Shown here one piece after another: positions 7,378 through 45,493 of a DNA stretch of 64,000 bases. The stretch lies in NCBI RefSeq assembly GCF_001677475.2, contig NZ_CP015229.1; one strand, given 5' to 3'. The notes below the pieces were generated by a model. That model was not told the DNA's origin. It ran no database searches and saw nothing but the letters and a program-made list of their open reading frames with translations. The stretch's first letter is position 1, and each line of letters opens with the position of its first letter. The stretch comes from Escherichia coli (GTDB lineage Bacteria > Pseudomonadota > Gammaproteobacteria > Enterobacterales > Enterobacteriaceae). Made by a program: the position numbers and the translations under genes.

Positions 7378-7378
7378 T

Positions 7379-7507: not shown

Positions 7508-7536
7508 TAAGAGAAGCGGCACCGCGAGGAATCAGT

Positions 7537-7752: not shown

Positions 7753-7841
7753 CCACTGAGCTCAAGTAGTTCTCCACAGATGAAGTGCGTGCGCCGGACA
7801 CGGATAAACCTCCGGCATGCTCTTTAACAATCTGGATATTC

Positions 7842-8288
7842 CTAACCACAAAGAAATCGCATCAATTTGGATTTTGTGGGCAACTTCTCTTGTTGTTCGA
7901 TGGAGACGCCCATTTTGATCTGTGTTTTTAAGATCGCAATATCTTTAAGTGATGACCAAATATGACCATCTGTTTTTTCCAGAATTTTTAACTGAATTTT
8001 CAATTCCGAATCAGAATATTTTTCTGCATCATCAAAAAGCTGCAAATATTCTGCGGATTTTCTCATGGCATTACCTGACTTTTGTCCGAATCCATAAATC
8101 GTTTGGACGGTTGCGATCACAACAATAAAAACGCCAGAAATTTCCGGAATGAATCCGCCAATGACAGATGAACCGAGGATAACACTCACTACTGAGAGAA
8201 GTTTATCGAGACGACCAGTCGCTACAGAAAATAGTTGCTCAAGAAAATAGCCATATAAAATTCTGTCAAGAATATCATCCCGGTCCAT
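7842..8288 (-). CDS. Two-TM membrane protein encoded antisense inside the dicBF operon (148 aa); candidate superinfection-exclusion or abortive-infection protein
   Basis: ORF track; AT-rich codon usage distinct from its flanks; AGGTGA Shine-Dalgarno 7 nt upstream of the ATG; two adjacent hydrophobic helices (about residues 35 to 75) and a charged C-terminal domain; sits in extra DNA absent from the K-12 Qin ydfC-dicF interval as I recall it. Confidence 0.6.
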   Translation of the reverse strand: MDRDDILDRILYGYFLEQLFSVATGRLDKLLSVVSVILGSSVIGGFIPEISGVFIVVIATVQTIYGFGQKSGNAMRKSAEYLQLFDDAEKYSDSELKIQLKILEKTDGHIWSSLKDIAILKTQIKMGVSIEQQEKLPTKSKLMRFLCG

Positions 8289-8746
8289 ACATCATCACCT
8301 GCTTGTTTGGTTGTTGCTGTTCCCCCTCTCCTCCGAAGGAGTTGGAGATGGTTTTGGTCGAATGTTTTTCTCTGGTATGTGATCCCAGACTGTTTTATGC
8401 GTCGAATTGCCACCACCTGCTTGTGCTCTTTGCTCTGTCATATGATTTCCTTGGATCGTTGGGGATATCCAGATTATACAGATTTCCTGTCGTTGGGGAA
8501 TGACGGAAACCACCTCGCCTGACGTGGTTAAAAGCAGGCACACAACACGAAAGCGCACGGCGAAGTTCGTCTCACTGTACGGTGTCGGTAAATTTAATTC
8601 GACCGTGCGCTTCCGGTTGTGGCACTCCGCGAAATGACGCGGCGGTAAGTATGGCGGGGTTATTCTTTCCCCGTTGAGGACACCGGGTTGTCAGGTTGAC
8701 CATACGCTTAAGTGACAACCCCGCTGCAACGCCCTCTGTTATCAAT

Positions 8747-8799
8747 ATTCTGGTGACATTTGGCGGTATCAGTTTTACTCCGTGACTGCTCTGCCGCCC
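8747..8799 (+). ncRNA. dicF: DicF small RNA
   Basis: The sequence tTCTGGTGACaTTTGGCGGTATCAGTTTTACTCCGTGACTGCTCTGCCGCCCTTTTT matches the 53-nt DicF sequence from memory with about two substitutions, ends in a GC hairpin plus U-run, and lies about 185 bp upstream of dicB as in Qin. Confidence 0.65.
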
Positions 8800-8983
8800 T
8801 TTTTAAAAGTGAATTTTGTGATGCGGTGAATGCGGCTCAGCGCACGCGGAACAGTTAAATCGGTAAAGAGGTCATTTGCTGAGTAACGGGAATGCTCTGT
8901 ATCCGGCGTTAATTGTTAACTGGTTAACGTCACCTGGAGGCACCAGGCACTGCATCACAAAATTCATTGTTGAGGACGCGATA

Positions 8984-9172
8984 ATGGAAAAGTTATCATG
9001 CAATGCCAGTACGTCTGAACTTCGTTTCGAAATTGGCGTTATCACTGGAGAAAAAACATTTATTGAAGACGCCATTAAGCAGAGAAAACTCGAGCAGGAC
9101 CTGTTAAATGAAGTATGCATTCCTTCAATGCTGGCTCGTCTGGACCTGCTGCAAAAAGGATATAAACAATGA
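8984..9172 (+). CDS. dicB: DicB-like cell division inhibitor (62 aa)
   Basis: Internal start MEKLSCNASTSELRFEIGVITGEKTFIEDAIKQRKLEQDLLNEVCIPSMLARLDLLQKGYKQ aligns along its length with K-12 DicB (FEIGV, EDAI.KRK, SMLARL); the ORF track 8876..9172 is an upstream extension. Confidence 0.85.
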   Translation: MEKLSCNASTSELRFEIGVITGEKTFIEDAIKQRKLEQDLLNEVCIPSMLARLDLLQKGYKQ

Positions 9173-9360
9173 ATACAACATTTGCACTCGTTCTGACAGT
9201 TTATCTTGTTTCCGGCGAATCTCTTGAGCTGGTGACTGGCTTATACGGTTCAATGAAAGAATGCATGGCTGCCGCAGCAGAACAAAAAATTCCCGGTAAC
9301 TGTTATCCGGTAGATAAAGCTACTCACACTAATAATAACGAAATACCGGCGGGACTTTAA
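9169..9360 (+). CDS. ydfD: YdfD-like small protein (63 aa) with an N-terminal hydrophobic segment
   Basis: Immediately follows dicB with a 4-bp overlap, as ydfD does in Qin; 63 aa with a signal/TM-like N-terminus. Confidence 0.6.
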   Translation: MNTTFALVLTVYLVSGESLELVTGLYGSMKECMAAAAEQKIPGNCYPVDKATHTNNNEIPAGL

Positions 9361-9453
9361 AACAGCACCGAAATAAACATCCGGTTTCATTTTTATATGC
9401 CAGCAATGGCAGGGATTTGTTCACCCTTAAATCTGTAATGAGGTTAAAACAAA

Positions 9454-11925: not shown

Positions 11926-11977
11926 TGTTCAACCCTAATTGCCGCTAACCGTATATAGTTAGCGGCGGTTATGAGAT

Positions 11978-12187
11978 ATGGCTATGAGCAGCTTATTTTT
12001 AACCGAAGATGAATTGCTAATATTAACGGGCTGCAAATATGCAAGCCACCAGCGAAAATGGTTAATGGAAAACGGGCTTCCGTTCTATACCAATCGTAGT
12101 GGCAAACCGATTGTCAGCCGGGATCTATTTACCTGCAATAAAACTTTACCACCACGCGAGGTAGAGCCGAATTTTGGTGCAATCTGA
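11978..12187 (+). CDS. Excisionase-like small DNA-binding protein
   Basis: 69-aa ORF immediately upstream of and overlapping the integrase start; the position is typical of xis. Confidence 0.5.
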   Translation: MAMSSLFLTEDELLILTGCKYASHQRKWLMENGLPFYTNRSGKPIVSRDLFTCNKTLPPREVEPNFGAI

Positions 12188-13212
12188 TGGGAAGACGAAG
12201 GAAAAATCCTGAACACGAAAAATTACCTCCAAATGTATACCCAAATAAATATAGTTATGTATGGAAACCAACATCCAGAGAATCTGTCACACTAACCGCC
12301 ATCAAGGATGGTTTAGCTGCTTTATGGAAAAAGTATGAGGAAACTGTAAATAATCGCGATCGCGCAATGACATTCGGTCGCTTGTGGGAAAAATTCCTCG
12401 CCAGCGCCTATTACAGTGACCTCAGTCCAAGAACACAAAAAGATTATCTGCAACATCAAAAAAAGTTGCTTGCCGTATTCGGTAAGGTGCCGGCAGATTC
12501 CATAAAACCAGAACACATCCGTCGATACATGGACAAGAGAGGGGAACAGAGTAAAACGCAAGCCAACCATGAAAAAAGCAGTATGTCCCGCGTTTACAAT
12601 TGGGGGTATGAGCGAGGGTACGTGAAGGGTAACCCATGTGCAGGTGTAAGTAAATTCAAGGCCAAAAACCGCGAACGATATGTAACCGACAAAGAATACC
12701 AGGCAGTATTAAGTGTTGCACCTCTTCCTGTTTTTATCGCAATGGAAATTGCCTATCTGTGTGCAGCGAGGGTTTCCGATGTGTTATCACTGAAATGGGA
12801 GCAGATTGGAAACGACGGGATCTTTATCCAGCAAGGGAAAACAGGGAAAAAACAGATAAAAGCATGGAGTCCACGATTACAGGCGGCGATCGAAAAAGCA
12901 AAACAGTTACCAACATCTGCCTATGTAATCAGCAATCAATATGGCAACCGATATATGTACAAAGGTTTTAACGAAATGTGGGTAGAAGCAAGAAATCACG
13001 CAGGCAAAATTTCAGGTATTTTAACCGACTTCACCTTTCATGATCTGAAGGCGAAAGGAATTTCAGACTATGAAGGAAGCAGCCGGGATAAGCAACTTTT
13101 CTCTGGTCACAAAACCGAAGGGCAAGTGCTAATCTATGACAGAAAGGTTAAAGTTTCACCAACACTTGATGTCCCGTTACCTGATAATATTCCAAGAAAA
13201 TATTCCAAGTAA
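12187..13212 (+). CDS. int: Tyrosine-type phage integrase
   Basis: 341 aa; C-terminal catalytic region with H-x-x-R (FTFHDLKAKG) and the tyrosine motif (VLIYDRK); ends about 50 bp from the 3-prime end of tRNA-Ser. Confidence 0.9.
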   Translation: MGRRRKNPEHEKLPPNVYPNKYSYVWKPTSRESVTLTAIKDGLAALWKKYEETVNNRDRAMTFGRLWEKFLASAYYSDLSPRTQKDYLQHQKKLLAVFGKVPADSIKPEHIRRYMDKRGEQSKTQANHEKSSMSRVYNWGYERGYVKGNPCAGVSKFKAKNRERYVTDKEYQAVLSVAPLPVFIAMEIAYLCAARVSDVLSLKWEQIGNDGIFIQQGKTGKKQIKAWSPRLQAAIEKAKQLPTSAYVISNQYGNRYMYKGFNEMWVEARNHAGKISGILTDFTFHDLKAKGISDYEGSSRDKQLFSGHKTEGQVLIYDRKVKVSPTLDVPLPDNIPRKYSK

Positions 13213-13264
13213 TTCCAAGTGTGATTTTTGTCACTGACTTAATGATGTGTAAGTGATTGAATTT

Positions 13265-13354
13265 TGGCGGAGAGAGGGGGATTTGAACCCCCGGTGGAGT
13301 TGCCCCCACTCCGGTTTTCGAGACCGGTCCGTTCAGCCGCTCCGGCATCTCTCC
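13265..13354 (-). tRNA. serU: tRNA-Ser (anticodon CGA), serU-like
   Basis: Reverse complement reads GGAGAGATGCCGGAGCGGCTGAACGGACCGGTCTCGAAAACCGGAGTGGGGGCAACTCCACCGGGGGTTCAAATCCCCCTCTCTCCGCCA, a 90-nt class II tRNA with a CGA anticodon and long variable arm. Confidence 0.9.
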
Positions 13355-14734: not shown

Positions 14735-22738
<8,004 letters not shown>

Positions 22739-30979: not shown

Positions 30980-31009
30980 AAAAGCCCGCTTTTTTAGCGG
31001 GCTTTTTGC
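30980..31009 (+). terminator. Intrinsic terminator after asnU (probably bidirectional, abuts the cbl stop)
   Basis: aaagcccgc-ttttttag-cgggcttttt. Confidence 0.7.
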
Positions 31010-31429
31010 TATATCTGATAATCAATTTCCTCTTCACTGTTTTCCATCACCTGCCGCTTAATATCCTCAACTGACAGTCCTGCATTACAAAGTTCCAGAA
31101 AGCGCCAGACATAGTTACGCTGAAGTTGTCCTCGCTTGAGTCCCAACCAGACAGTATTAGCATCAAAAAGATGCCGCGTATCCAGGCGGATTAGATTCTC
31201 TTCCTCTTGTTCGCCGCTGGATTGTTCGGCAACTAATCCGATCCCAAGCCCAAGAGCAACATAGGTTTTAATGACATCAGAATCCTGCGCACTTAATACA
31301 ATATCTGCCAGCAAACCTTTGCGGGCAAATGCGTCATCAATACGTGAGCGCCCCGTAATCCCCTGTCGGTAAGTGATTAACGGCCACTTCGCTATTGATT
31401 CCAGCGTCAATGGTGAAATTTGCGTCAAG
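31009..31429 (-). pseudogene. cbl: cbl 3-prime fragment (C-terminal about 135 codons of the LysR-family sulfonate-utilisation regulator Cbl), separated from its 5-prime part by an IS insertion
   Basis: Translation TQISPLTLESIAKWPLITYRQGITGRSRIDDAFARKGLLADIVLSAQDSDVIKTYVALGLGIGLVAEQ... continues the reading frame of the 5-prime fragment at 33840..34375 exactly across the IS. Confidence 0.85.
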
Positions 31430-31522
31430 TATGAGACGACAATAACTCAGTCCGCCTGGCGCCGATTATTCTGGCCGGTTTTGTAACCTGAGTGTCATTT
31501 ACATGATCCAACAGGAAATGGC

Positions 31523-33022
31523 GTGACGCTCAATACTTCTCAGGTCAGTTACTATATGACTCAGCGTAAGAAAGGTATAACTCAGCATATCTCGGCCATG
31601 AAGGCTGGTATCTCAGTCCGTTCTGGTCGTCGGATCGAAAAAGGAGAGTGGGCAAAAAACAGTGTTCGGCACTGGCGCACACGCAAAGATCCTCTGGAAG
31701 CTGTGTGGGACAGCATGCTTGTTCCTCTGTTGAAAGAGAGGCCGGCTCTGACACCAACAACTCTACTGGAGATGCTACAGGATAAATATCCCGGCCAGTA
31801 CCCCAACAGCCTTCGAAGAACAATGCAACGGCGGGTTCGCGAATGGAAACTACAGTATGGTACAGAGCAGGAGGTCATGTTCCGCCAGCAACATCAGCCC
31901 GGCCTGCGAGGCCTGTCGGACTTTACTGAACTGAAAGGTGTAGTTGTCACCATCGCCGGTAAGTTGTTGGCGCATAAGTTGTATCACTTCCGTCTGGAAT
32001 GGAGCCACTGGAGCTGGATGCGGGTTGTTCTGGGTGGTGAGAGCTTCTCTGCTCTGGCTGAAGGCCTGCAGGAAGCCCTCGGACAACTGGGCGGAGTGCC
32101 GGTAGAACATAAAACGGACAGCCTGAGGGCAGCATGGAAACAACAGGGCGAAGATGGACGCCGCGAGCTGACTGAGCGTTATGCTACTCTCTGTCAGCAC
32201 TACGGAATGCAGGGCGTACACAATAATGCCGGTCGGGGCCACGAAAATGGCTCGGTTGAAAGTGCCCACGGACATCTGAAAAGGCGTATCTGTCAGGCGC
32301 TGATACTGCGGGGCAGTAACGACTTCAGCACCATAGAAGAATATCAGGCCTTCATCACTCAGCAGGTTATGCGGCACAACCGTAACAATCAGGATCTGGT
32401 CAAGGAAGAACGTCTTCATCTGAAACCGCTGCCGCTTCGTCGCAGTGCTGACTATGATGAGCTGACTGTGAGGGTTAGTCGCAGCAGTACCATCAATGTG
32501 AAGCACGTCGTCTACAGCGTACCTTCCCGGCTTGTAGGTCAACTGTTACGGGTCAGGTTATGGGACGATCGTCTGAGCTGTTACGTTGGCAGCAGCGAGG
32601 TCATGAGCTGCCCTCGCGTCAGACCAGAAAAAGGGAAGACGCGGGCCCGTCGTATCGACTTCCGACATGTGATCGACAGTCTGGCAAAAAAGCCCGGTGC
32701 GTTCTGCCATGCAACGCTGAGAAATGACATCCTGCCGGACGATGAATGGCGGAGGCTGTGGCGTCGCTTATGTAATCATCTGGAGCCCGATATGGCAGGA
32801 AGGCTGATGGTACATGCCCTGAAACTGGCTGCAGGATACGACGATATCTCAGTCGTGGCAAAAGGTATGGAGCAGATGCTGAATACCCCGGGAAACGTGG
32901 ATCTGCACCGGCTGATGCGCTTCCTGGGTATAAAAGAAAAGGCGTTGCCGGTAGTCAATGTGATACAGCATAACCTGAGCAGTTATGAGCAACTACTGCG
33001 TGGCAAGGGAGGTTCGCAGTGA
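31523..33022 (+). CDS. istA: IS21-family transposase IstA
   Basis: 499 aa; N-terminal HTH, central DDE-type integrase core; overlaps the downstream istB by 4 bp as in IS21-family elements. Confidence 0.85.
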   Translation: MTLNTSQVSYYMTQRKKGITQHISAMKAGISVRSGRRIEKGEWAKNSVRHWRTRKDPLEAVWDSMLVPLLKERPALTPTTLLEMLQDKYPGQYPNSLRRTMQRRVREWKLQYGTEQEVMFRQQHQPGLRGLSDFTELKGVVVTIAGKLLAHKLYHFRLEWSHWSWMRVVLGGESFSALAEGLQEALGQLGGVPVEHKTDSLRAAWKQQGEDGRRELTERYATLCQHYGMQGVHNNAGRGHENGSVESAHGHLKRRICQALILRGSNDFSTIEEYQAFITQQVMRHNRNNQDLVKEERLHLKPLPLRRSADYDELTVRVSRSSTINVKHVVYSVPSRLVGQLLRVRLWDDRLSCYVGSSEVMSCPRVRPEKGKTRARRIDFRHVIDSLAKKPGAFCHATLRNDILPDDEWRRLWRRLCNHLEPDMAGRLMVHALKLAAGYDDISVVAKGMEQMLNTPGNVDLHRLMRFLGIKEKALPVVNVIQHNLSSYEQLLRGKGGSQ

Positions 33023-33774
33023 GCAATATCCATCACCTTGAACATAGCCTGCGTAAACTACGCCTGACACGAGTTGGAGCTGAATGGCACGCTCTGGAAA
33101 AACGAGCGCTGGCAGAAGGCTGGACACCATCGCGCTATCTTCTGACGCTATGCAATGAAGAACTCCTGTGGCGCGAGAGTGAAAAACTGCGTCGTTATAA
33201 AAAGGAGGCCCGGTTGCCAGTTGCCAAAACGCTGAGCGAATACGACTTCAGTCAGGTGCCGGAACTGAATGGAGCTCAGTTCCGGCAACTCTGTGAAACG
33301 ACAGACTGGGTTGATGCAGGAGAAAACGTTCTGCTGTTCGGAGCCAGCGGGTTGGGGAAAAGCCATCTGGCGGCAGCGATCGTGGATGGCGTAGTAGGTC
33401 AGGGCTACCGGGCCCGGTTCTACAGCGCAGGAGAGCTGTTGCAGGAACTACGTAAAGCCAGAGCTCAGTTGAAACTGAATGAGCTGCTACTGAAACTGGA
33501 TCGCTACCGGGTGATAGTGGTGGATGATCTTGGCTATGTCAAACGCGATAGTGCCGAAACGGGTGTGCTGTTCGAGTTAATAGCGCATCGCTATGAACGT
33601 GGGAGCCTGGTGATAACCAGTAACCATCCGTTCAGCATGTGGGGCAGCATCTTCGTGGATGAGACTATGGCGGTGGCTGCGGCAGACAGGCTGATCCATC
33701 ACGGATATATGTTCGAACTGAAAGGGGAAAGCTACAGGAAAAAGACAGCGAAGGCAGTAACAAGCGCGACTTGA
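33019..33774 (+). CDS. istB: IS21-family helper ATPase IstB
   Basis: 251 aa; Walker A GASGLGKSH and Walker B VIVVDDLGY; DnaC-like AAA+ fold typical of IstB. Confidence 0.9.
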   Translation: MSNIHHLEHSLRKLRLTRVGAEWHALEKRALAEGWTPSRYLLTLCNEELLWRESEKLRRYKKEARLPVAKTLSEYDFSQVPELNGAQFRQLCETTDWVDAGENVLLFGASGLGKSHLAAAIVDGVVGQGYRARFYSAGELLQELRKARAQLKLNELLLKLDRYRVIVVDDLGYVKRDSAETGVLFELIAHRYERGSLVITSNHPFSMWGSIFVDETMAVAAADRLIHHGYMFELKGESYRKKTAKAVTSAT

Positions 33775-33839
33775 TGTCGCCCTGAAGGGTGCGGCCAGTA
33801 TAGTTGGCGCGAGTCGGCAAAACTAGTTGACGTCTAATA

Positions 33840-34375
33840 GTCAAGGGATGATCGTGTGGAACAAGCAAACTATGGTGCCAACGAAACCACGGGAAGGCGA
33901 CGAGCTGCGGGTCATTACTCAAACGCTCGCTGGCGATACCAATATCAGCTTCACCATTTTGCAACAACGTCGCAATTTCCTGTGGCGTCCCCTGGATTAG
34001 CTCGAGCCGAACCTCCGGGAAAAGTTCGCGAAAAGCTTTAATGACCTCTGGCAAGCTATAACGTGCCTGAGTATGCGTCGTTGCAATAGTGAGAACGCCA
34101 GACGTATCGTTGGTAAACAGGTCTGCAAGCCGACGAACATTACTGGCTTCATTCAGAATACGTTCTGCAATGACCAGTAATGCTTTGCCCGGTTCAGTCA
34201 TGCCCAGCAGTCTCTTACCTCGTCGAACAAATATTTCGATGCCAAGTTCATCCTCCAGTTCCCGAATATGACGGCTGACGCCTGACTGTGAGGTAAAAAG
34301 CATATTCGCAACCTCTGTCAGGTTGTAATCCTGACGTGCAGCTTCGCGGATTATCTTTAGTTGTTGGAAATTCAC
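33840..34375 (-). pseudogene. cbl: cbl 5-prime fragment (N-terminal about 178 codons, LysR HTH and start of the substrate-binding domain)
   Basis: MNFQQLKIIREAARQDYNLTEVANMLFTSQSGVSRHIRELEDELGIEIFVRRGKRLLGMTEPGKALL... up to ...LLVPHDHPL, then the frame runs into IS sequence; the ORF track entry 33665..34375 is the artefactual read-through. Confidence 0.85.
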
Positions 34376-34476
34376 GGTAAACTCCGGGCAGTTCAGATAT
34401 CCCGTTATTGTTAAAGTCTAATGCCCGGCATAACAAATAATAAAAACCCGCATCTTATTCCATCCCGATATAACGC

Positions 34477-35394
34477 TTAGCTCACCAATTGCCACTGCCT
34501 TTTTTCCATCACTGGAGAACTAATCACTGACATTAACAACTCTTTCACTGCTTGCGCCTGTGGTGATAAGTTCGCTCTGGCGGGTAAATTTAATGACAAA
34601 GAGAGACTCATGGAAGGTGTGGTAATGCGTGACATCCACCCGTTTACTGCGCCACATAACGAACGCGCGGCCGATTCGGGTAATACTGCAACGCCCATGC
34701 CGCTGGCAATCGCTGCGGTAAGCGTGGCAATAGACTCAATTTCACCAATGACTTTTGCCGTGAGCCGCCGTAGGGAAAAAGCCTCATCAACACGAAGTCT
34801 AATAGCACTGTAATCACTGGGGAGAAAGAGGTTCATTTGCGCAATAGCATTAACATCAACGCTTTGCCCCGGGCAATCTTGAGTTCCTACCAGGAAAAGA
34901 TCTTCTTTCAGCAAAGCCTGACTGGATACACCAGCCACAGGGGAATGCTCATAAATCACCGCCATATCGAGTTGATGATTTATCAGTTTTTCGTTAAGTA
35001 CTGCACCGCTATTTTCATGAAGATAGATAACGATCTCCGGGAATTCAGCGCGAACCGCCTGTAATAAGGGCATGGTGATGGATGACGCTGCGGTTCCTGG
35101 CGCAAAGCCAATCGAGACTTGCCCCGATAATGCCTGACCAACGTTATGCACCGCCAGTTGGGCCTGCTCACACTGACGTAAAATGGCCCGCGCATGGGTA
35201 TAGAGAATTTTTCCGGCGTCTGTTGGCGTAACGCCCCGTTTTGTGCGAATCAAAAGTTGTTGATTTAACTCACCTTCCAGTGTGGCAACCTGCTGACTGA
35301 GCGCTGGTTGTGCGATATGCAATACTTCAGCAGCCTGGGTCAGGCTACCAATATCTACAATTTTTACGAAGTATTTCAGGCGTCTGAAGTTCAT
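34477..35394 (-). CDS. nac: Nitrogen assimilation control protein Nac (LysR family)
   Basis: 305 aa from MNFRRLKYFVKIVDIGSLTQAAEVLHIAQPALSQQV...; position between cbl and asnV as in E. coli. Confidence 0.85.
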   Translation of the reverse strand: MNFRRLKYFVKIVDIGSLTQAAEVLHIAQPALSQQVATLEGELNQQLLIRTKRGVTPTDAGKILYTHARAILRQCEQAQLAVHNVGQALSGQVSIGFAPGTAASSITMPLLQAVRAEFPEIVIYLHENSGAVLNEKLINHQLDMAVIYEHSPVAGVSSQALLKEDLFLVGTQDCPGQSVDVNAIAQMNLFLPSDYSAIRLRVDEAFSLRRLTAKVIGEIESIATLTAAIASGMGVAVLPESAARSLCGAVNGWMSRITTPSMSLSLSLNLPARANLSPQAQAVKELLMSVISSPVMEKRQWQLVS

Positions 35395-35448
35395 GTTGCC
35401 TCCGGTGTTTAAGAATCGGCACAAGTGCCGCCATTACTTACAACCAGA

Positions 35449-35465
35449 GTGCAAGATGCTTGCCA
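35449..35465 (-). promoter_or_regulatory. Sigma-54 (-24/-12) promoter element for nac
   Basis: Minus-strand sequence CTGGCAAGCATCTTGCA fits TGGCAC-N5-TTGCA and lies about 55 to 70 bp upstream of the nac ATG; nac is known to be NtrC/sigma-54 dependent. Confidence 0.55.
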
Positions 35466-35720
35466 GTTTTATTTTGGCGTTGATGTACAAGCTAACCAGC
35501 TGTCAAATAAGAGATTATGATAGATTCGTCATTGGCTCCTTTAATCAGCTGTCGCGTTCCCCTGCCCTATAAAAGGAGGGTATGCACCACGATGGTTCAT
35601 TACCCAATAAGATTGAAAGCTCACCACTTTGTTGAAATTGACAGCAAACAAACAAAAAAATGCATTTCACCCTTTGACATCACCATGCACTGCCATTAAT
35701 ATGCGCCCCGTTCACACGAT

Positions 35721-35796
35721 TCCTCTGTAGTTCAGTCGGTAGAACGGCGGACTGTTAATCCGTATGTCACTGGTTCGAGTCCAGTCAGAGGAGCCA
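35721..35796 (+). tRNA. asnV: tRNA-Asn (GUU)
   Basis: Identical 76-nt tRNA-Asn sequence; same upstream discriminator as asnT. Confidence 0.95.
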
Positions 35797-35802
35797 AATT
35801 CA

Positions 35803-35832
35803 AAAAAGCCTGCTTTTAAGCAGGCTTTTTGC
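35803..35832 (+). terminator. Intrinsic terminator after asnV
   Basis: aaaaaagcctgc-tttta-agcaggcttttt. Confidence 0.7.
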
Positions 35833-35851
35833 TTTGTAATTACCAACGCTC

Positions 35852-36787
35852 TTAAAACATCTGTCTTGAACCAGAACTAATTTGCACAGGCATTCCCGAT
35901 CGTCGTTGCAACGCAGCATTTGCGCGATTTACATCAACTTCTTGCCCGTTGATAAACGCCCGCAAAGATGGGGTTACCGGCAATGGTACTTTTCGGTCAG
36001 ACTCATATTCTGCACGATTGCGCGACAGCGGCTCATGAACTTCCAGCCACTTTGAACCATCCGGTTCCGTTGTGTATTTCACTGGCTGATCAATAATTTG
36101 AACACGAGTACCTACAGGAACATTATCAAACAGATATTTGATATCGTCATTGCGCAGACGAATACAGCCCTGACTTACCCGGAGCCCAATACCAAAATTG
36201 GCATTGGTACCGTGGATGGCATACAACCTGCCAATATAAATCGCGTACAGCCCCATGGGATTATCGGGACCCGCAGGAACAAATGCGGGCAAACTCTCCC
36301 CTCGTTTCGCATATTCGCGCCGAGTGTTCGGCGTTGGCGTCCAGGTTGGAGCTTCTTGTTTACGTTCAACGGTAGTCACCCAGTTACGCGGGGTTTCTCG
36401 CCCAGCCTGGCCGATACCAATAGGAAAGACTTCCACAGTATTACTGTCTGGCGGGTAGTAATAAAGACGCATCTCAGCGACGTTAACCACAATCCCTTTA
36501 CGAACAGTGGCGGGCAAAATCAGTTGCTGCGGAATGGTGAGTTGTGAGCCAGACTTCGGTAAAAAAACATCAGCGCCCGGATTCGCTTCCAGCATATTAC
36601 TTAACCCTTGCCCGTATTGTGCGGCAAAAGTCTCCAGCGGCTGAGTATTGTGATTAGGAACAGTTACAGTAAGCGACTGCCCCACTAAACGGCTACCCTC
36701 TGGAGGTAATGGATAAGTTACCGCCAGGCTATTTTGGCTGGCAAAAAGCAGAGCAAATGAGCAAAGAATATTTACACGACGCATCAT
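35852..36787 (-). CDS. ldtA: L,D-transpeptidase (ErfK/YbiS family)
   Basis: 311 aa with signal peptide and YkuD catalytic domain (conserved H...GC motif: [22 protein letters not shown]). Confidence 0.85.
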
Positions 36788-36848
36788 GTCCCTTTCCTAA
36801 GTCGCGAATACTATCCGATAAGTATAGCTTTTATCAGAATTTTCGTTT

Positions 36849-37928
36849 TTAGCTGTTCAAATCAGAAGTCGTATTCCCCGGTAGAACAATATTACTGGCA
36901 GCAAGTTCGCCCATGTTGTTGTATATCGCACAAGCAGCTTCGATGATGGGCATCGCCAGAGCTGCACCACTCCCCTCACCTAAACGCATATCCATATTGA
37001 GATAAGGCTCCAGCCCCAAATGCGACAGCGCTATACGCGCGCCTTTTTCTGCCGACAAGTGAGAAGGAATGAGATACGGTTTGATTGCAGGAGACATCTG
37101 GTAGGCTGCGAGCGCAGCAGCATAAGAAAGAAATCCATCCAGCAACACAGGTAAACCGCAGGAAGCAGCGCCTAACATCACGCCAGCCATTCCGACCAAA
37201 TCAAATCCACCCACTTTTGCCAGGACATCAACGCCATCCTGAGGATTTGGTTTATTCAACGTAATCGCCCGGCGCACAACATCAATTTTATTAGCCAGTT
37301 TATCTGTCGGCAGGTTTGCGCCAATCCCAACCACTTCTTCAGGATCCCGGCCAGTGATTGTGCTGACTATTGCCGCTGCCGGTGTCGTGTTTGCCATCCC
37401 CAGTTCACCTACACCAAACAGCGTGACACCGTTTTTTGCCAGCTCCCGCGTATAACATATGACGTCCAAAAGCAACTTTTCAGCCTGACGGCGACTCATT
37501 GCCGGAGCTGAAGCAATATTGCCGCTACCTCGTGCGACACGCATGTTGATAAGCCCGGGGATAGGCTTAGCAGTATCAATACCAACATCAATTACGTGGA
37601 CGTTAGCGCCCGCTTGTGCTGCCAGCACACACACGCCGGTTGTTCCGCGGGTCATATTTTCAGCCTGAATGGCTGTCACTTCTTTTGGGGAAATAGCGAC
37701 CCCTTCCTCCCAGACGCCGTGATCGGCACACATAACCAGTACTGCTTTTTTGCCCACATGCGGTATGCCATTCAACCCCGGCATTCCCGCCAGTTGTATG
37801 GCAAGCGCCTCCAGCCTTCCCAGGCTACCAACAGGTTTGAGTAACCCGTCGATATGCCGTTGTGCACGCGACATAGCGGCAGGATCGATGGCAGGGATCG
37901 TATTCAGTAAATCGGCAAGTGTTTGCAT
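36849..37928 (-). CDS. cobT: Nicotinate-nucleotide--dimethylbenzimidazole phosphoribosyltransferase
   Basis: 359 aa; matches CobT in length and sequence pattern; first gene in the cobUST order read on the minus strand. Confidence 0.9.
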
Positions 37929-37939
37929 GTCACGTCTCT

Positions 37940-38683
37940 TTATAGCATTGCCAGCAGGAAGACCAGTTCACCTAGCTCTATGGCTGCTCCCAGCGTATCG
38001 CCGGTTTGCCCGCCCAGCGTACGTTTGAGAAGCTGACCGAGAATGAAAATCGCAGCCATCGTCAACACCATAGCAGCCACACCATGCATACCCGGCAATA
38101 ATACGGCAGCAAAAATAGCGGCTAAGCCGAGTGTGACGCAGGTTTGTCGCCCATCAATTTTGCCAATGAACACATTGCCAAGCCCTTCTTCCCGGGCATA
38201 ACGATGACGATACATCAATAATGTGGCAGTCCCGCGGCTGACCGCACATGCTGCCGCCAGCGATGCAAGGATCGGTTCGCCACGCAGAGCCAACTCGCTT
38301 AACACCAGAATCTTTGCCAGTACAACAAAAATCAAGGCCAGACCGCCGTGGGTGCCTAACCGGCTATCCCGCATGATTTCCAACATGCGTTCGCGACTAC
38401 GTGCAGAAAATACGCCATCACAGGTATCGGCGAGGCCGTCCAGGTGGAATCCCCCGGTCATCAGCGCCAGCACAAGTACGCTAAACAGTGCCGCCAGTGG
38501 TACGCCACACCATGCCTGCAGCACCATGAAGACCAGCCCGCTGATCGCGCCAAGCAATAATCCAATCAAAGGAAAAGTAATAATACCGCGAGAATAATGC
38601 TCGAAATCCAGTCCCTGGGACCAGCGACGCGGTACAGGCAGACGCGTAATAAAAGAGAGCATCGCCCAAAATAATTTACTCAT
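37940..38683 (-). CDS. cobS: Adenosylcobinamide-GDP ribazoletransferase (cobalamin synthase)
   Basis: 247-aa polytopic membrane protein from [20 protein letters not shown] overlap with the cobU stop; the ORF track 37940..38719 is an upstream extension. Confidence 0.9.
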
Positions 38684-39225
38684 TTGATTTTTACTCCAAT
38701 ACCCGAAACCACCAGCCATACTTCATTTGCCGCAGCGGCCAGCTGCTGATTTACCCGCCCGGCAATATCACGAAAATGTCGTGCCAGACGACTCTCCGGC
38801 ACAATCCCCATACCCACTTCGTTAGTCACTAATACAACCTTTGCGGGGCAACGTTGGCAGGCAGTAATCAACGACTGAATCTCAGCATTAATCGCCTGTT
38901 CCATCACCTGATAATCCCATTCATCAGGGTCTTTATCGCCGCCATAATCAAACAACAGATTAGTCACCATTGTGGTAACGCATTCCAGCAACACAGCCTC
39001 ATTCGGGTTAATGTCTGCATGAATTAATTCATCAAGATGTTGCCAGCGCTCCACTGTGCGCCAGTGCGCCGGGCGGCCTTGCCGATGATGTTCTATCCGT
39101 GCAGCCATCTCATCATCAAGGATTTGCGAGGTGGCGATATACAGAACCTGTGAAGAGTCCCCAATAAGCGCCTCTGCGTGGCGACTCTTCCCGCTCCGTG
39201 CGCCCCCCGTCACCAAAATCATCAT
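38680..39225 (-). CDS. cobU: Bifunctional adenosylcobinamide kinase / adenosylcobinamide-phosphate guanylyltransferase
   Basis: 181 aa with P-loop GGARSGKS; matches CobU. Confidence 0.9.
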
Positions 39226-39358
39226 ACCGACTCCTGATTCATTTGTATGATGGTATTCATTGAACAGAACAATGGATCCCCCACCGTTGCTGACCGCAAA
39301 ACATTTACGCGATTAATACTGCGCGTAATATAATTAAAAATCCAGTATTCTCAATCCA

Positions 39359-39865
39359 TTACGAAAGAAGATGGCATTGCGGGATAGCCAGACTTCCTCG
39401 TGTTAACGTCCGACAAAATGCGTCATTGACAGCGGTTTCTCTGGCATGACAGATTTCATTCAGATAATGGATTAATGCTGCAGCCCCACCAGCCGGACCA
39501 GTCAGCAAACGGGCATTGTGTTCTGCAATCAAAATTACCGTCGTTCCCTCAGAATGAGCGAGCCATTCTGGTACAGATATCTCGCTTTCAGCTGCTATCA
39601 ATAGCAGCACTGAATAATCGCTATATGCATCTGATAACGATTGCACAGGCCCACCGTCAAAAGGCTGGAAATCTTGCTGCCAGTCCTCACCAACAAAACA
39701 GGTTATTGGCAATATTTCAGCCAGATGTTTCGCCAGGTCCACATCTCCAGATAAGAGGCAAAAAAGAGCTATCGATTCGGGTTTTATCGTTTTCATGCCC
39801 CTCGCCCTCCACTTAATTTCCTGTAATGGCGGTCTGGTTGATAAGCCATGAAACAAGATTGCCAC
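39359..39865 (-). CDS. Orphan ORF (145 to 168 aa) occupying the slot of the cbi genes, immediately downstream of the cobalamin riboswitch; possible remnant or fusion of cbi genes
   Basis: ORF track; first ORF after the riboswitch on the cob-operon strand; no family recognised; the corresponding interval in Salmonella holds 17 cbi genes. Confidence 0.4.
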   Translation of the reverse strand: MAILFHGLSTRPPLQEIKWRARGMKTIKPESIALFCLLSGDVDLAKHLAEILPITCFVGEDWQQDFQPFDGGPVQSLSDAYSDYSVLLLIAAESEISVPEWLAHSEGTTVILIAEHNARLLTGPAGGAAALIHYLNEICHARETAVNDAFCRTLTRGSLAIPQCHLLS

Positions 39866-39959
39866 ACCTTAAGTGCAGCCCTGGTGCCTGTCGGCACTGC
39901 GATGAAAGAACTAAATGATGCCGCCATACCCTGATCCTTTCAGGGTGGTAGGGGTATAA

Positions 39960-40190
39960 AGACGCGCCTGTACTCTACCTGACGCTTCCGGGCAACCCAC
40001 TTCCCACCGAAGTTGTTGGTATTGACTGACTGGCTGGTCTTCTGGCTTAGCGTCATCCTCACCCGACCTTCCCAATCTCGCGATCAGTGGCATTTTCGGG
40101 TTTGTCAGCATTACAGCAGCGGGGGCTGCGAGGGATTTTCACCCTCTTCCCAGGCACAAATGTGCCACACCTGTCAGCGTATGTTATGAG
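39960..40190 (-). promoter_or_regulatory. Cobalamin (B12) riboswitch in the cob operon leader
   Basis: The minus strand reads ...GGGAAGAGGGTGAAAATCCCTCGCAGCCCCCGCTGCTGTAATG...GCCACTG...GGGAAGGTCGGGTGAGG..., matching the conserved core and the B12 box (GCCACTG) of the cobalamin riboswitch; located between pocR and the first cob-strand ORF as in Salmonella. Confidence 0.8.
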
Positions 40191-40277
40191 CTGATTTCAC
40201 TTTTCCCATAACAGGTAAATAACGTTAATTATTCATTCCAGCGTTTATTTAAACCTTCCCTTTTTTTAGCATTTACT

Positions 40278-41192
40278 CTATACCGTTTCCATCGCCGCAT
40301 TTTCACTCACTTGCTGTCGATACACCTGCGGCGTAACCTGATAAGTCTGACGAAAAACTTTGCAAAAATAACTGGTTTGTGAAAAACCTAAATTACGCGC
40401 AATGCTGGCGATGCTCCAGTCGCTATGGCACAGTAACTCACGAGCGCTGGCCATCCGTTGTTGGTTTACCCACGCATTAAACCCGATTCCATGGTATTTC
40501 TTGAATAACTTACTGAAATAATAAGGGCTTAGATAAACATGCGAGGCGACATCTTCCAGACGCAAATCGTCTGATAAATGCGCATCAATATAGCGTAAAG
40601 CTTTTTTCATTTTATTGTCGTGGGGACCAGGCGCACGAGTCTGGCGCACCGAATCTGACTGAGATTTGTTCTCTTTAATAACCACAAAATTGAGTTGTTT
40701 TTTGAGGCAATTTTCTACAATCAACTTCAACAAATCAGCAGAGGCCATAACTCTTGAGTAATCCATCTCAGGGACTTTGCGAAATTCATTAAGTAATTCG
40801 GGATCTGCCTGCCAGCAATCATCGACATTCAGAATATCGACCAAATCGACATCATCATTACGCAGACGAACTTGCCCGCACAATACAAAACCGACTAAAT
40901 GCCCGGCGATTACCAGTGGAATAGAGAAATCGGTTAATCCGGCATGACAGCGATAAATACAAGGCTGATCGGATTTAGAGGCTTCCAGGCCCCCACAACG
41001 ATCGCTCATGCGACATCGAGTGCTTAGCTGAGGGTGTTGCCGCATCAACTGACAAAATGGAGTGAAGTTAAACAGCTCGGAAATTTCATCGCCGTGAATA
41101 TTGACCACGACAACCGCAAGGCTGGTCGCCTGCGCAAAATCCTGCGCGATTTTATTAATGAGTTCTGAATTAAGTGTCGCCGCAGAAATCAT
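40278..41192 (-). CDS. pocR: AraC-family regulator PocR (activator of pdu and cob operons)
   Basis: 304 aa; C-terminal AraC-type HTH (DVASHVYLSPYYFSKLFKKYHGIGFNAWVNQQRMASARELL); position between pduF and the cob leader. Confidence 0.85.
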   Translation of the reverse strand: MISAATLNSELINKIAQDFAQATSLAVVVVNIHGDEISELFNFTPFCQLMRQHPQLSTRCRMSDRCGGLEASKSDQPCIYRCHAGLTDFSIPLVIAGHLVGFVLCGQVRLRNDDVDLVDILNVDDCWQADPELLNEFRKVPEMDYSRVMASADLLKLIVENCLKKQLNFVVIKENKSQSDSVRQTRAPGPHDNKMKKALRYIDAHLSDDLRLEDVASHVYLSPYYFSKLFKKYHGIGFNAWVNQQRMASARELLCHSDWSIASIARNLGFSQTSYFCKVFRQTYQVTPQVYRQQVSENAAMETV

Positions 41193-41394
41193 GATAAAAC
41201 CTCCCAGTTAATTTATTGTTATAGCAAAACAATTGTTTTACATTTAATCTTCACATCATCCTTGATGATTTACTGACGAGAAGCACAAAGGACAATAACA
41301 AAAGCCTCCGTGAAGCGGGAGACTTTTTAATAAGTTCGGAAAGCAGATCACAAACAGTAAAAAAATAAACGTTTATAACTGCCAGATTATTTCG

Positions 41395-42204
41395 TTATTC
41401 GCTGATTTCTTTAGGCGTTACACTATTGACAGGTAAATTCTTTGCAATGAGATAGCGATAAATCGCCGCACCAACACATGCGCCAATGATCGGTGCAATA
41501 ATGGGTACAATGAAATAAGGAATATTGCGTCCACCAGTCATCGCAATTTCCCCCCAACCCGCAAGCCAGGTGAAAAATTTAGGTCCAAAATCACGCGCTG
41601 GATTCATGGCAAAACCGGTTAATGGTCCGGTAGAAGCACCAATAACAGCAACCAGAATACCAATTAGTAAAGGCGCAAGCGGTCCTTTGGGTACGCCATT
41701 ACCGTCATCGGTCAACGCCATAATCAACCCCATTAACATGGACGTTATGACCACTTCGACCAACGCAGCTTGCCATACATTAATCGCCGCTGCCGGATAA
41801 GTACTGAAGATACTGGCGAGTTGTAAACTTTCTGCACTACCACGCACCATATTGTGAGCAGATTCAAAATCGGTAAACAAACTGCTGTATAGAGAATATG
41901 CCAGAACCGCACCACCAAAGGCACCCGCTAATTGCGCCACACAAAATGGCAGCACTTTACGGGCTGGGAAAGAGGCAAACAGCCACAGAGCAATGGTAAC
42001 TGCCGGGTTGAGATGAGCGCCGGAAATACCTGCCGTAAGGTAAACAGCAAGCGAAATCCCTAACCCCCAAATGATACAAATTTCCCACAGTCCCAGACTT
42101 GCCCCGGCAACTTTCAGGGCGCACAAACAACCAATGCCAAAAAAGAGGAACAGTCCGGTGCCTAAAAACTCGGCAACGCATTGCGCCTTGAGTGAATCAT
42201 TCAT
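41395..42204 (-). CDS. pduF: Propanediol diffusion facilitator (MIP/aquaporin family)
   Basis: Two NPA motifs (HLNPAVT and NPARDFGPK), six TM helices; start taken at MNDSLKAQC within ORF 41395..42243. Confidence 0.85.
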   Translation of the reverse strand: MNDSLKAQCVAEFLGTGLFLFFGIGCLCALKVAGASLGLWEICIIWGLGISLAVYLTAGISGAHLNPAVTIALWLFASFPARKVLPFCVAQLAGAFGGAVLAYSLYSSLFTDFESAHNMVRGSAESLQLASIFSTYPAAAINVWQAALVEVVITSMLMGLIMALTDDGNGVPKGPLAPLLIGILVAVIGASTGPLTGFAMNPARDFGPKFFTWLAGWGEIAMTGGRNIPYFIVPIIAPIIGACVGAAIYRYLIAKNLPVNSVTPKEISE

Positions 42205-42243
42205 AGTGACACCTTCTTTACGGAGTTTTTCTTTATCAGCCAA

Positions 42244-42716
42244 CTATGCGCTGATTGTTGTGTATATCGAGCGCAACTATAAAAAATTGCTCTGCAGAAA
42301 ATATTGCCAACATGCATGACAGACTCGTGTAAAAATCGTTCTAACATAGCAAATTATTGTCATTGCCGAAGCATGCAACACAGCGTTAATCAGTGTTGAA
42401 AGTAATAATTACTGTCAAACTTTCACAATAAAAAATTGTCATCATGATATAATAAAATTTAAACAAATATCACAATTCCCTTCCGCCAACCAAACCCAAC
42501 GAAATTTTATCCGCGATTAACCCCCTCAACCAACGCAATTAATTCACATTGAAACATCCACAAAATAACCAAGAAATTAATAACATATAGTTTATAAAAG
42601 CAATTTTATAATATTTGCCCTCTATTAATTTTTCTCATTAGCCGATTAAGTCAGCCATTCTTTTTCCTCGCTTTTTTTTATAGTCATATCGTCAAAAAAA
42701 TCCAGGCGAGGTCTTT
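42244..42716. promoter_or_regulatory. Divergent pduF/pocR - pduA control region
   Basis: 473-bp AT-rich intergenic region between divergently transcribed pduF and pduA; expected site of the pdu promoters and PocR binding. Confidence 0.5.
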
Positions 42717-43001
42717 ATGCAACAAGAAGCGTTAGGAATGGTAGAAACCAAAGGCTTAACTGCCGCCATAGAGGCCGCAGACGCCATGGTGAAGTCGGCA
42801 AATGTTTTGCTGGTCGGCTACGAAAAAATAGGTTCCGGGCTGGTGACAGTCATCGTTCGTGGTGATGTCGGGGCGGTAAAAGCGGCAACAGACGCAGGTG
42901 CCGCAGCTGCGCGTAACGTCGGCGAAGTAAAAGCCGTACACGTTATTCCCCGCCCACATACCGATGTCGAAAAAATCTTACCAAAGGGAATTAACCCATG
43001 A
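42717..43001 (+). CDS. pduA: BMC-H shell protein PduA
   Basis: 94 aa with a single BMC domain ([30 protein letters not shown]...). Confidence 0.9.
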
Positions 43002-43810
43002 GCAGCAATGAACTGGTCAAACAGATCATGGCGCAGGTCATCGCTCGCGTAGCGACGCCAGAGCATGAGGTTCTCCCGAAAACCACTCATCAAATACGAG
43101 AGACGGCTATGGCAGAAAAAAGCTGCACGTTAACAGAATTTGTTGGCACCGCTATTGGCGACACTGTAGGTCTGGTCATTGCGAACGTTGATAGCGCCCT
43201 GTTGGACGCGATGAAACTTGAAAAACGCTATCGTTCCATTGGCATTCTGGGTGCGCGTATTGGCGCAGGGCCACACATTATGGCCGCTGATGAAGCGGTA
43301 AAAGCCACCAACACTGAAGTTATTAGCATTGAACTTCCTCGGGATACTAAAGGCGGTGCCGGACATGGCTCATTGATCCTCTTAGGTGGCAACGATGTTT
43401 CCGACGTGAAACGCGGTATTGAAGTCGCCCTGAAAGAACTCGATCGGACCTTTGGCGATGTCTATGCCAACGAAGCCGGACATCTTGAGCTGCAATATAC
43501 CGCCCGCGCCAGCTATGCACTGGAAAAAGCGTTTGGAGCACCATTGGGACGGGCTTGCGGCGTTATTGTCGGCGCTCCGGCTGCGGTGGGTGTTCTGATG
43601 GCCGACACCGCGCTGAAGTCCGCCAATGTGGATGTCGTGGCATACAGCTCCCCCGCTCAAGGCACCAGCTACAGCAACGAAGTCATTCTGATTATCTCGG
43701 GTGACTCCGGCGCAGTCCGCCAGGCGGTCATCTCCGCACGCGAAATCGGTAAAACCGTGCTTTCGACTCTCGGCGATACACCGAAAAACGATCGCCCTTC
43801 CTACATCTGA
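42998..43810 (+). CDS. pduB: Tandem-BMC shell protein PduB (an internal start would give PduB-prime)
   Basis: 270 aa; ATGA overlap with pduA; internal Met at [11 protein letters not shown] corresponds to the known PduB-prime start. Confidence 0.85.
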
Positions 43811-43828
43811 ATTCTCTGAGGCAGATTT

Positions 43829-45493
43829 ATGAGATCGAAAAGATTTGAAGCACTGGCAAAACGCCCGGTCAACCAGGACGGTTTCGTTAAAGAGTGGATT
43901 GAAGAAGGCTTCATTGCGATGGAAAGCCCGAACGATCCTAAACCGTCAATCAAAATTGTTAACGGCGTCGTTACCGAACTGGATGGAAAACCCGCCAGTC
44001 AGTTTGACCTGATCGACCACTTTATCGCCCGCTACGGCATCAATCTCGCGCGCGCAGAGGAAGTCATCGCGATGGATTCGGTAAAACTGGCCAATATGTT
44101 GTGCGATCCAAATGTCAAACGTAGCAATATCGTTCCCCTTACCACAGCAATGACGCCTGCAAAAATAGTCGAAGTAGTTTCGCAGATGAACGTGGTAGAG
44201 ATGATGATGGCGATGCAGAAAATGCGCGCCCGTCGAACACCATCACAACAGGCTCACGTCACCAACGTCAAAGATAACCCGGTACAAATTGCCGCCGACG
44301 CAGCTGAAGGCGCATGGCGCGGGTTTGATGAACAGGAAACCACCGTTGCCGTTGCTCGCTATGCCCCGTTCAACGCCATCGCCCTGCTGGTCGGCTCACA
44401 GGTGGGACGCCCGGGCGTCTTGACCCAGTGTTCACTGGAAGAAGCCACCGAACTGAAACTCGGTATGTTAGGCCACACCTGTTACGCCGAAACAATTTCT
44501 GTCTATGGTACAGAACCTGTTTTCACCGATGGCGATGACACCCCGTGGTCAAAAGGATTTCTCGCGTCATCCTATGCTTCTCGCGGCTTAAAAATGCGCT
44601 TTACTTCCGGCTCTGGCTCTGAAGTACAGATGGGTTACGCGGAAGGTAAATCAATGCTTTATCTCGAGGCTCGTTGCATTTACATCACCAAAGCCGCAGG
44701 CGTTCAGGGCCTGCAGAGTGGTTCGGTAAGCTGCATCGGTGTTCCATCAGCTGTGCCATCAGGCATCCGCGCGGTATTAGCGGAAAACTTAATTTGCTCA
44801 TCGCTGGACCTGGAATGCGCCTCCAGTAATGACCAGACCTTTACCCACTCGGATATGCGCCGTACAGCACGTTTCCTGATGCAGTTTCTGCCAGGTACCG
44901 ACTTTATCTCTTCCGGTTTTTCCGCTGTGCCGAACTACGACAACATGTTTGCTGGTTCAAACGAAGATGCTGAAGACTTCGATGATTACAACGTCATTCA
45001 GCGTGACCTGAAGGTTGATGGCGGGCTGCGACCAGTACGCGAAGAAGATGTTATCGCTATCCGCAATAAAGCCGCTCGCGCTTTACAGGCTGTCTTTGCC
45101 GGTATGGGACTACCGCCTATTACCGATGAAGAAGTCGAAGCGGCAACCTATGCCCACGGTTCGAAAGATATGCCTGAGCGCAATATTGTGGAAGACATTA
45201 AGTTCGCCCAGGAGATTATCAATAAAAACCGTAACAGCCTGGAAGTGGTGAAAGCCCTGGCGCAAGGCGGTTTTACCGATGTCGCCCAGGCCATGCTCAA
45301 CATGCAAAAAGCAAAACTGACCGGCGATTATCTCCATACCTCAGCCATCATCGTCGATGACGGACAAGTGCTCTCTGCGGTCAATGACATCAATGATTAC
45401 GCCGGACCGGCTACAGGTTACCGCCTGCAAGGGGAACGCTGGGAAGAGATCAAAAATATTCCCGGTGCACTTGATCCCAACGAAATTGACTAA
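43829..45493 (+). CDS. pduC: B12-dependent diol dehydratase large subunit
   Basis: 554 aa; MRSKRFEALAKRPVNQDGFVKEWIEEG... matches PduC/PddA. Confidence 0.9.
   Translation: MRSKRFEALAKRPVNQDGFVKEWIEEGFIAMESPNDPKPSIKIVNGVVTELDGKPASQFDLIDHFIARYGINLARAEEVIAMDSVKLANMLCDPNVKRSNIVPLTTAMTPAKIVEVVSQMNVVEMMMAMQKMRARRTPSQQAHVTNVKDNPVQIAADAAEGAWRGFDEQETTVAVARYAPFNAIALLVGSQVGRPGVLTQCSLEEATELKLGMLGHTCYAETISVYGTEPVFTDGDDTPWSKGFLASSYASRGLKMRFTSGSGSEVQMGYAEGKSMLYLEARCIYITKAAGVQGLQSGSVSCIGVPSAVPSGIRAVLAENLICSSLDLECASSNDQTFTHSDMRRTARFLMQFLPGTDFISSGFSAVPNYDNMFAGSNEDAEDFDDYNVIQRDLKVDGGLRPVREEDVIAIRNKAARALQAVFAGMGLPPITDEEVEAATYAHGSKDMPERNIVEDIKFAQEIINKNRNSLEVVKALAQGGFTDVAQAMLNMQKAKLTGDYLHTSAIIVDDGQVLSAVNDINDYAGPATGYRLQGERWEEIKNIPGALDPNEID

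Follow-up and report, generated by a model that had tools for sequence, protein, structure and literature searches.

Insertion sequences of the IS21 family typically end in 5'-TG...CA-3', a feature that is usual and not obligatory, generate short direct target duplications of 4-8 bp and are known to carry outward-facing -35 boxes at their ends. The reference elements IS21 and IS5376 are bounded by inverted repeats that are long and imperfect; in both, istA overlaps the start of a downstream istB, which encodes an AAA+ protein with Walker A and Walker B motifs. With regard to ISEc10, a member of this family that RefSeq annotates in E. coli, for instance in the genome of CFT073, laboratory selections in the latter strain yielded new insertions (PMC7482066), and published insertions of this element are known to enter or adjoin chromosomal genes and to change their expression (PMC7482066; PMC8764528). 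The gene that concerns us here is cbl, whose product is required for the expression of tauABCD and ssuEADCB in K-12, as described in published reviews and papers.

The window analysed in this study, a stretch of 64,000 nt of E. coli DNA, contains one copy of ISEc10, which has the same length, gene layout and gene coordinates as the annotated copies and differs from them in its insertion site only (Table 1). Whereas the published ISEc10 insertions occupy promoters or flanking sequence and come with a measured phenotype (PMC7482066; PMC8764528), the one described here lies inside a coding sequence, that of cbl; among the other genomes searched, an ISEc10 copy in cbl was found in one draft assembly only, identical to the window. 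The explanation that we favour, and hold to be very probable, is that one copy of ISEc10 transposed into cbl in a very recent simple insertion, creating what is most likely a null allele.

Table 1. Coordinates of the disrupted cbl gene, the inserted element and the neighbouring nac gene in the window.
Feature	Position	Strand	Remarks
cbl 3' fragment, stop codon at 31009-31011	31009..31429	-	NF009324 positions 178-316; includes the left duplication copy
Target-site duplication GTCAAG, left copy	31424..31429		One copy in the empty site of strain M10
Complete ISEc10 (IS21 family)	31430..33839	+	2,410 bp; orientation opposite to cbl
Left terminal inverted repeat (TATGAGACG...)	31430..31477		48-nt arm, 71% complementary to 33792-33839
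istA, transposase, 499 aa, GTG start	31523..33022	+	NF033546, IS21 family transposase
istB, AAA+ helper ATPase, 251 aa, GTG start	33019..33774	+	NF038214
Fusion ORF, 236 aa	33665..34375	-	179 native Cbl residues plus 57 from the right end of the element
Right terminal inverted repeat (...CGTCTAATA)	33792..33839		Contains outward-facing TTGACG at 33827-33832
Target-site duplication GTCAAG, right copy	33840..33845		Read from the sequence; single in the M10 empty site
cbl 5' fragment (nt 1-536 from the start codon)	33840..34375	-	NF009324 profile positions 1-178
nac, intact, 305 aa	34477..35394	-	Upstream of cbl, same strand

The name ISEc10 was taken from the RefSeq annotation of near-identical copies, which the window element matches over 100% of its length with 98.5-99.9% identity; furthermore, six other public contigs hold copies with 100% identity to it. 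One paper puts the length of an ISEc10 insertion at 2,530 bp (PMC8764528), as opposed to the 2,410 bp of the window copy. A search of the window ruled out any second or partial copy. The inverted repeats are imperfect and sit exactly at the boundaries of the element that the empty site sets. For comparison, nine further full-length copies were available, each at a different site and with 99.9-100% identity. The same termini, TATGAG...CTAATA, were observed in the window copy and in these nine, with the duplications abutting these bases, and the target duplications of the nine copies measure 6 bp in seven cases and 5 bp in one, the remaining copy having none. The 6-bp duplication of the window copy lies inside the range of the IS21 family. 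The ends of ISEc10 are 5'-TA...TA-3', in contrast to the TG...CA of IS21 and IS5376, and this deviation characterises ISEc10 in general and is not peculiar to the window copy. A different delimitation, with an 8-bp duplication and TG termini, is impossible since TA follows the repeat at one end of the element and precedes it at the other.

Membership of IstA and IstB in the IS21 family is defined here by the NCBI curated cut-offs of the corresponding NCBIfam equivalogs. IstA scores 226.4 bits against NF033546 (cut-off of 160) over residues 12-304, and IstB scores 266.7 bits against NF038214 (cut-off of 200). The sequence-only reading had proposed an IS21-family element of 2.4 kb with full-length IstA and IstB, all of which is borne out: both scores exceed their cut-offs, the proposed bounds are exact to the base, and the coordinates of istA and istB within the element match those annotated by RefSeq in the reference copies. 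As in IS21 and IS5376, the two genes overlap, with the istB start extending over the istA stop by 4 nt. IstB carries a Walker A motif (GASGLGKS, at residue 108) and a Walker B motif (VIVVDD, at residue 165), both of which are aligned in its match to the IstB of IS5376 (PDB 8q3w; E = 3.7e-45). The window IstA, in contrast, is too divergent to match the solved IstA of IS5376 by sequence: a search of solved structures returned no match, even at E = 10. Residues 55-263 of IstA match the IS481 transposase model weakly. A Pfam scan of IstA showed a C-terminal Mu-transposase-like domain only and no rve domain, another difference from the reference elements. Since neither a solved IstA nor the rve model is matched, the assignment of the DDE residues rests on inspection, which points to D133, D199 and E246 as candidate catalytic residues, with K253 seven positions past the glutamate, a spacing that fits the one expected for DDE enzymes. 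The window copy is intact and probably still able to move, given its intact genes and its 100% identity to copies elsewhere, most of which are flanked by 6-bp duplications, and given that transposition of ISEc10 has been observed in the laboratory (PMC7482066).

With regard to the target gene, the two fragments of cbl together span the whole of NF009324, the NCBIfam equivalog for Cbl. The insertion point corresponds to nt 531-536 of cbl, in codons 177-179, and joining 31009-31429 to 33846-34375 restores 951 nt in frame that encode 316 aa reading ...LVPHDHPLTQISPLTLES... The reconstructed protein is 100% identical to WP_001011007.1, a Cbl annotated in other E. coli genomes, and apart from the insertion the gene is free of lesions. 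The proposals that the fragments rejoin in frame once the element and one repeat are removed, and that this is a simple insertion with a GTCAAG duplication, were thus upheld, the latter by the single copy of the repeat in the empty site of other genomes. The placement of the insertion 100 bp from nac was mistaken: 101 bp is the distance between the nac stop codon and the cbl start codon, and 637 bp separate the former from the right end of the element. Residues 87-306 of Cbl are essentially identical to the solved cofactor-binding domain (PDB 2FYI) when the two are aligned, which shows that the insertion splits this domain mid-fold; its first half is encoded, together with the DNA-binding domain, by the 5' fragment.

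The comparison with other genomes supports a single, uncomplicated event. Of 5,426 complete E. coli genomes, 5,415 contain the reconstructed empty site as one contiguous stretch. Between 23175 and 54096 the window is colinear with strain M10, the element being the sole break; chance is therefore no explanation for the split arrangement. The blocks aligned with M10 and with GB089 overlap by exactly the six duplicated bases, and the reconstructed cbl differs from that of both strains at nine nucleotides, all of them synonymous. The element went in by simple insertion, and nothing was deleted or rearranged along with it.

The filled site was absent from all 5,426 complete genomes, when searched either with the whole locus or with a 200-bp probe of the left junction. 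Likewise, the exact 36-nt junction was found neither in species-representative genomes nor in JGI metagenomes, and the exact 236-aa fusion product has no record in the public gene collection. A search with the exact 139-aa C-terminal frame returned unrelated cbl alleles, produced by single-base deletions or a nonsense codon and not by an insertion of ISEc10. Two draft assemblies, identified by an exact match to LdtA, of which the window carries a rare allele, were more informative. GCA_002516285.1, on which no literature was found, matches the window with 100% identity over 33779-44787, stopping 61 bp into the right end of the element; it shows the same right junction, and the match covers this junction only. 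GCA_016118575.1 differs by two bases in 16.9 kb of flanking sequence and has an intact cbl. Furthermore, the 24 contigs examined that carry the exact YeeO of the window, a protein that starts at a CTG codon in the latter, show one or other of two gene arrangements, and a 316-aa cbl is present in each. Taken together, these genomes indicate that the insertion is very recent and limited to one strain, since a relative only two bases away in 16.9 kb has the empty site and the gene has been split without acquiring any other lesion. The exact Nac protein of the window is widespread, with an intact 316-aa cbl next to it in 10 of the 10 matches listed; this allele is so common that a match to it is uninformative for tracing the insertion.

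The consequences of the insertion can be predicted from what is known of both partners. In the mechanism that we propose, ISEc10 would supply IstA as a DDE-type transposase and IstB as the AAA+ helper, to which selection and delivery of the target DNA fall in this family; transposition into nt 531-536 of cbl duplicated 6 bp of the target. Halving the cofactor-binding domain would leave a fusion product with 179 native residues out of 236, most likely devoid of function. From the published work on K-12, the strain should lose the activation of tauABCD and ssuEADCB under sulfate starvation, both operons being located outside the window, so that taurine and alkanesulfonates should not support growth as sole sulfur source. 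The CysB-dependent assimilation of sulfate and cysteine should stay unaffected, and the same is expected of nac, on which no polar effect is anticipated because the two genes share a strand and nac comes before cbl. The allele is an ordinary knock-out, specific to one strain, by an already known element; its significance beyond the annotation of the strain is slight, and it addresses no open question. Nevertheless, it provides a clean natural allele, presumably null, together with a near-isogenic relative with intact cbl in public data, and it shows that this exact ISEc10 sequence is at present spreading between chromosomes, prophages and plasmids of E. coli.

Instead of being a neutral accident, the loss of Cbl might have been selected, with an advantage in some niche such as the environment outside the host, a reading that we consider unlikely. 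After 42 days in soil, survival of a K-12 cbl deletion mutant exceeded that of the wild type 5- to 10-fold, although a cbl plasmid did not complement this effect (PMC11794783). In other public contigs, cbl is interrupted by a nonsense codon or has lost a single base, at one of four positions, but the assemblies with single-base lesions are short metagenomic or automated ones, and these lesions may be errors. We found the insertion itself in one strain only and, since 5,415 of the 5,426 complete genomes and all 24 contigs examined from the same lineage have cbl intact at the site, there is no sign of recurrent selection. The proposal that the knock-out is adaptive by improving persistence outside the host, at which the K-12 screen in soil hints, and that this strain is one of several lineages that have independently inactivated cbl, seems improbable to us as well. 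A different objection to the favoured explanation concerns its null allele: the 236-aa frame keeps the native start codon, the promoter and the complete DNA-binding domain, and its 179 Cbl residues, which comprise this domain, the linker helix and half of the cofactor-binding domain, followed by 57 from the element, could in principle bind Cbl or CysB sites and act as a repressor or a competitor. This is very unlikely, as the cofactor-binding domain is cut mid-fold in the alignment with 2FYI, which usually results in an unstable protein.

The main effect of the insertion could also be regulatory, if outward transcription from the right end produced RNA antisense to the 5' fragment of cbl and to nac and thereby altered nac expression. 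The outward-facing TTGACG hexamer 7 bp inside this end would suit such a role, and the nac promoter is known to transcribe cbl under nitrogen limitation (PMC4018673). However, neither end of the element showed a promoter-like site in a consensus scan, so that strong promoters there are rejected, and in the flank no -10 candidate agrees with the consensus at more than three of six positions. Moreover, nac is upstream and 637 bp away, and in one published case the promoter next to an ISEc10 insertion became less active, not more (PMC8764528), all of which leaves an antisense effect with very little probability. Finally, an assembly or chimera artefact at the junction was considered because repeated elements often cause misassemblies. 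It found no support and is extremely improbable in view of the perfect 6-bp duplication, whose length is typical of ISEc10, and of the identical right junction present in the independent draft GCA_002516285.1.

The cbl gene is disrupted by a real, simple insertion, with no deletion or rearrangement. The sequence-only reading had described a clean insertion with target duplication, and this is borne out by the GTCAAG hexamer on both sides, by the empty site, which with a 500-bp reconstruction as query is contiguous and annotated as cbl in 5,415 of 5,426 complete E. coli genomes, and by colinearity with E. coli strains M10 and GB089. The alignment to M10 is colinear from 23175 to 54096 with the insert as its sole break, the blocks on either side overlapping by exactly the six bases of the duplication, and GB089 presents the same pattern. 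Once the insert and one hexamer are excised, the fragments join in frame as had been noted, giving a 951-nt open frame of 316 residues that contains ...LVPHDHPLTQISPLTLES....

Coordinates of the disrupted gene, the inserted element and other features of the window
Feature	Position	Strand	Remark
cbl 5' piece	34375 down to 33840	minus	start codon and first 536 nt
cbl remainder	31429 down to 31009	minus	to stop codon
Target duplication GTCAAG	31424-31429 and 33840-33845		directly abuts the insert at either end
Insert	31430-33839		2,410 bp, two + strand genes
istA	31523-33022	+	499 aa, GTG start
istB	33019-33774	+	251 aa, GTG start
Frame left by insertion	33665-34375		179 native Cbl residues and 57 from the element
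Prophage sok (of hokD/sok)	1299-1473		Rfam sok match
Prophage DicF RNA	8748-8799
Prophage integrase-like ORF	12187-13212
Cobalamin riboswitch	40015-40189		in cob/pdu block
sRNA STnc230	41253-41336		in cob/pdu block

With regard to the element, its IstA scores 226 bits against the NCBI curated IS21 transposase model (cut-off 160) and its IstB 267 bits against the helper ATPase model (cut-off 200). Both proteins thus pass, and near-identical copies are annotated as ISEc10, which upholds the proposed assignment to the IS21 family; megablast finds the element, annotated as "IS21-like element ISEc10", in 898 of the 5,426 genomes, in both chromosomes and plasmids, with as many as 14 sites in a single genome. 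Both genes had been read as full-length, in agreement with their identical positions within an annotated copy. The istB start, preceded by an AGGGAGG ribosome-binding site, overlaps the istA stop by 4 nt, and the insert is bounded by inverted repeats of 48 nt that are 71% complementary (TATGAGACG... and ...CGTCTAATA). IstB aligns with the solved IS5376 IstB (E = 3.7e-45), including Walker A (GASGLGKS) and Walker B (VIVVDD). IstA is divergent within its family: Pfam recognises only a C-terminal Mu-transposase-like domain, a sequence search returned no matching solved IstA, and inspection picked out a candidate DDE motif at D133, D199 and E246, with K253 at +7. The termini are TA...TA in every copy examined, whereas TG...CA is usual for IS21 elements.

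An exact look-up places this IstA in 145 blocks of a public collection. Nine sites among the IstA matches listed, together with a tenth from RefSeq, were compared; six contigs, from prophages, plasmids and chromosomes, carry copies that are 100% identical over the full 2,410 bp, and three further full copies reach 99.9% identity or more. The target duplication measures 6 bp in seven of these nine full copies and 5 bp in one, and is missing from one. Given the identical copies at other sites, the 6-bp duplications and the new ISEc10 insertions near lpp obtained in laboratory selections of CFT073 (PMC7482066), the cbl copy is intact, belongs to a population that is mobile at present and, judging by its sequence, is probably still able to move. 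The copy lacking a duplication (contig L004, 2908-5317) is one of those with 100% identity; the missing repeat suggests that copies later rearranged with one another or that neighbouring DNA was deleted. The copy in public contig L009 (2908-4809) is cut: identity to ISEc10 stops at nt 1902, and beyond it lies an oppositely oriented IS66-family transposase gene.

The insertion falls after Cbl residue 178, in the middle of the cofactor-binding domain solved for residues 87-306 (PDB 2FYI), and no ribosome-binding site for the downstream fragment is evident in the sequence. That the truncated protein retains function is unsupported, with nothing positive in its favour and the position of the break against it. 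In sulfate-starved cells Cbl activates tauABCD and ssuEADCB (PMC11495319; PMC11794783; PMC11748552), so that the split gene would be expected to cost the strain its sulfonate utilisation; both operons lie beyond the window. The nac gene, upstream on the same strand, is intact and should itself be unaffected. The element lies 637 bp from it and not 100 bp as first stated, the one point on which the sequence-only reading did not stand. Nitrogen limitation brings additional cbl transcription from the nac promoter (PMC4018673), and such transcripts would now read into the element. An effect of an outward promoter of the element on nac is likewise unsupported: nothing positive speaks for it, and a consensus scan called no promoter. 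An outward-facing, -35-like TTGACG (33827-33832) lies 7 bp inside the right end. IS21 forms a promoter at the junction of its abutted ends; with a 2-bp spacer, abutted ISEc10 ends would place this hexamer 17 bp from GACAAT of the left end, an arrangement that resembles the IS21 junction promoter; the scan made no call here.

The filled junction is absent from the 5,426 complete E. coli genomes, and was found neither among one genome per species from about 100,000 species nor in JGI metagenomes. No complete RefSeq E. coli genome exceeds 98.1% identity to the backbone (23175-54096), which is 99.98-100% identical to the drafts GCA_016118575.1 and GCA_002516285.1, so that this lineage seems to be missing from the complete genomes; for the same reason, close relatives were located via a rare LdtA allele. 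GCA_002516285.1, 100.000% identical to 33779-44787, carries the same right junction, its contig stopping 61 bp into the element from that end, and is the sole assembly on record with that truncated product. An assembly artefact is excluded, since this independent draft has the identical right junction and the duplication is typical of ISEc10. GCA_016118575.1, with 2 base differences in 16.9 kb, has an intact cbl, and a 316-aa cbl is present, in two gene arrangements, in each of the 24 contigs read with the exact YeeO protein of the window. As the filled junction is otherwise absent and a near-identical relative keeps the gene, the insertion is very recent and restricted to one strain. The reconstructed Cbl is identical to that of M10 and GB089, and the nine nucleotide differences are all synonymous, so that cbl was under purifying selection until the insertion. 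An adaptive loss is conceivable, as deleting cbl in K-12 improved survival in soil, but that effect was not complemented (PMC11794783) and the population data lend no support; both the element and the gene it interrupts are known, and the mechanism is ordinary.

Other cbl lesions occur in public contigs: single-base deletions at four different positions (L013, L014, L015 and L017), a split gene call with substitutions only, implying a stop codon (L012), and two alignment blocks with a 43-bp shortfall (L016). All are short metagenome or automated assemblies, and the lesions may be sequencing errors.

Elsewhere in the window, a partial lambdoid prophage (1-13354) adjoins tRNA-Ser (13265-13354) and also has dicB and an exonuclease gene. 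It is covered to at least 80% in only four of the 5,426 genomes, at about 99% identity, and two of these, GB089 and strain RM9088, have the integrase annotated as frameshifted. About 600 bp (6511-7109) do not align to the otherwise 99%-identical GB089 prophage, where the counterpart is a region of Cro/CI-family and HTH-protein genes. Four tRNA-Asn genes lie within 21 kb (14346, 29072, 30896 and 35721), none island-occupied here; in RM9088 a yersiniabactin island with an integrase sits beside the first. Downstream of that gene, an Ig-like-domain protein gene of about 8 kb, annotated as frameshifted in GB089, contains internal tandem repeats of about 690 bp (17770-19062; 87-88% identical). The stretch 36800-57250 holds cobUST, pocR, pduF and pdu microcompartment genes, ending in an EutP/PduV-family gene, and 33846-54000 is covered to at least 80% in only 638 of the 5,426 genomes.
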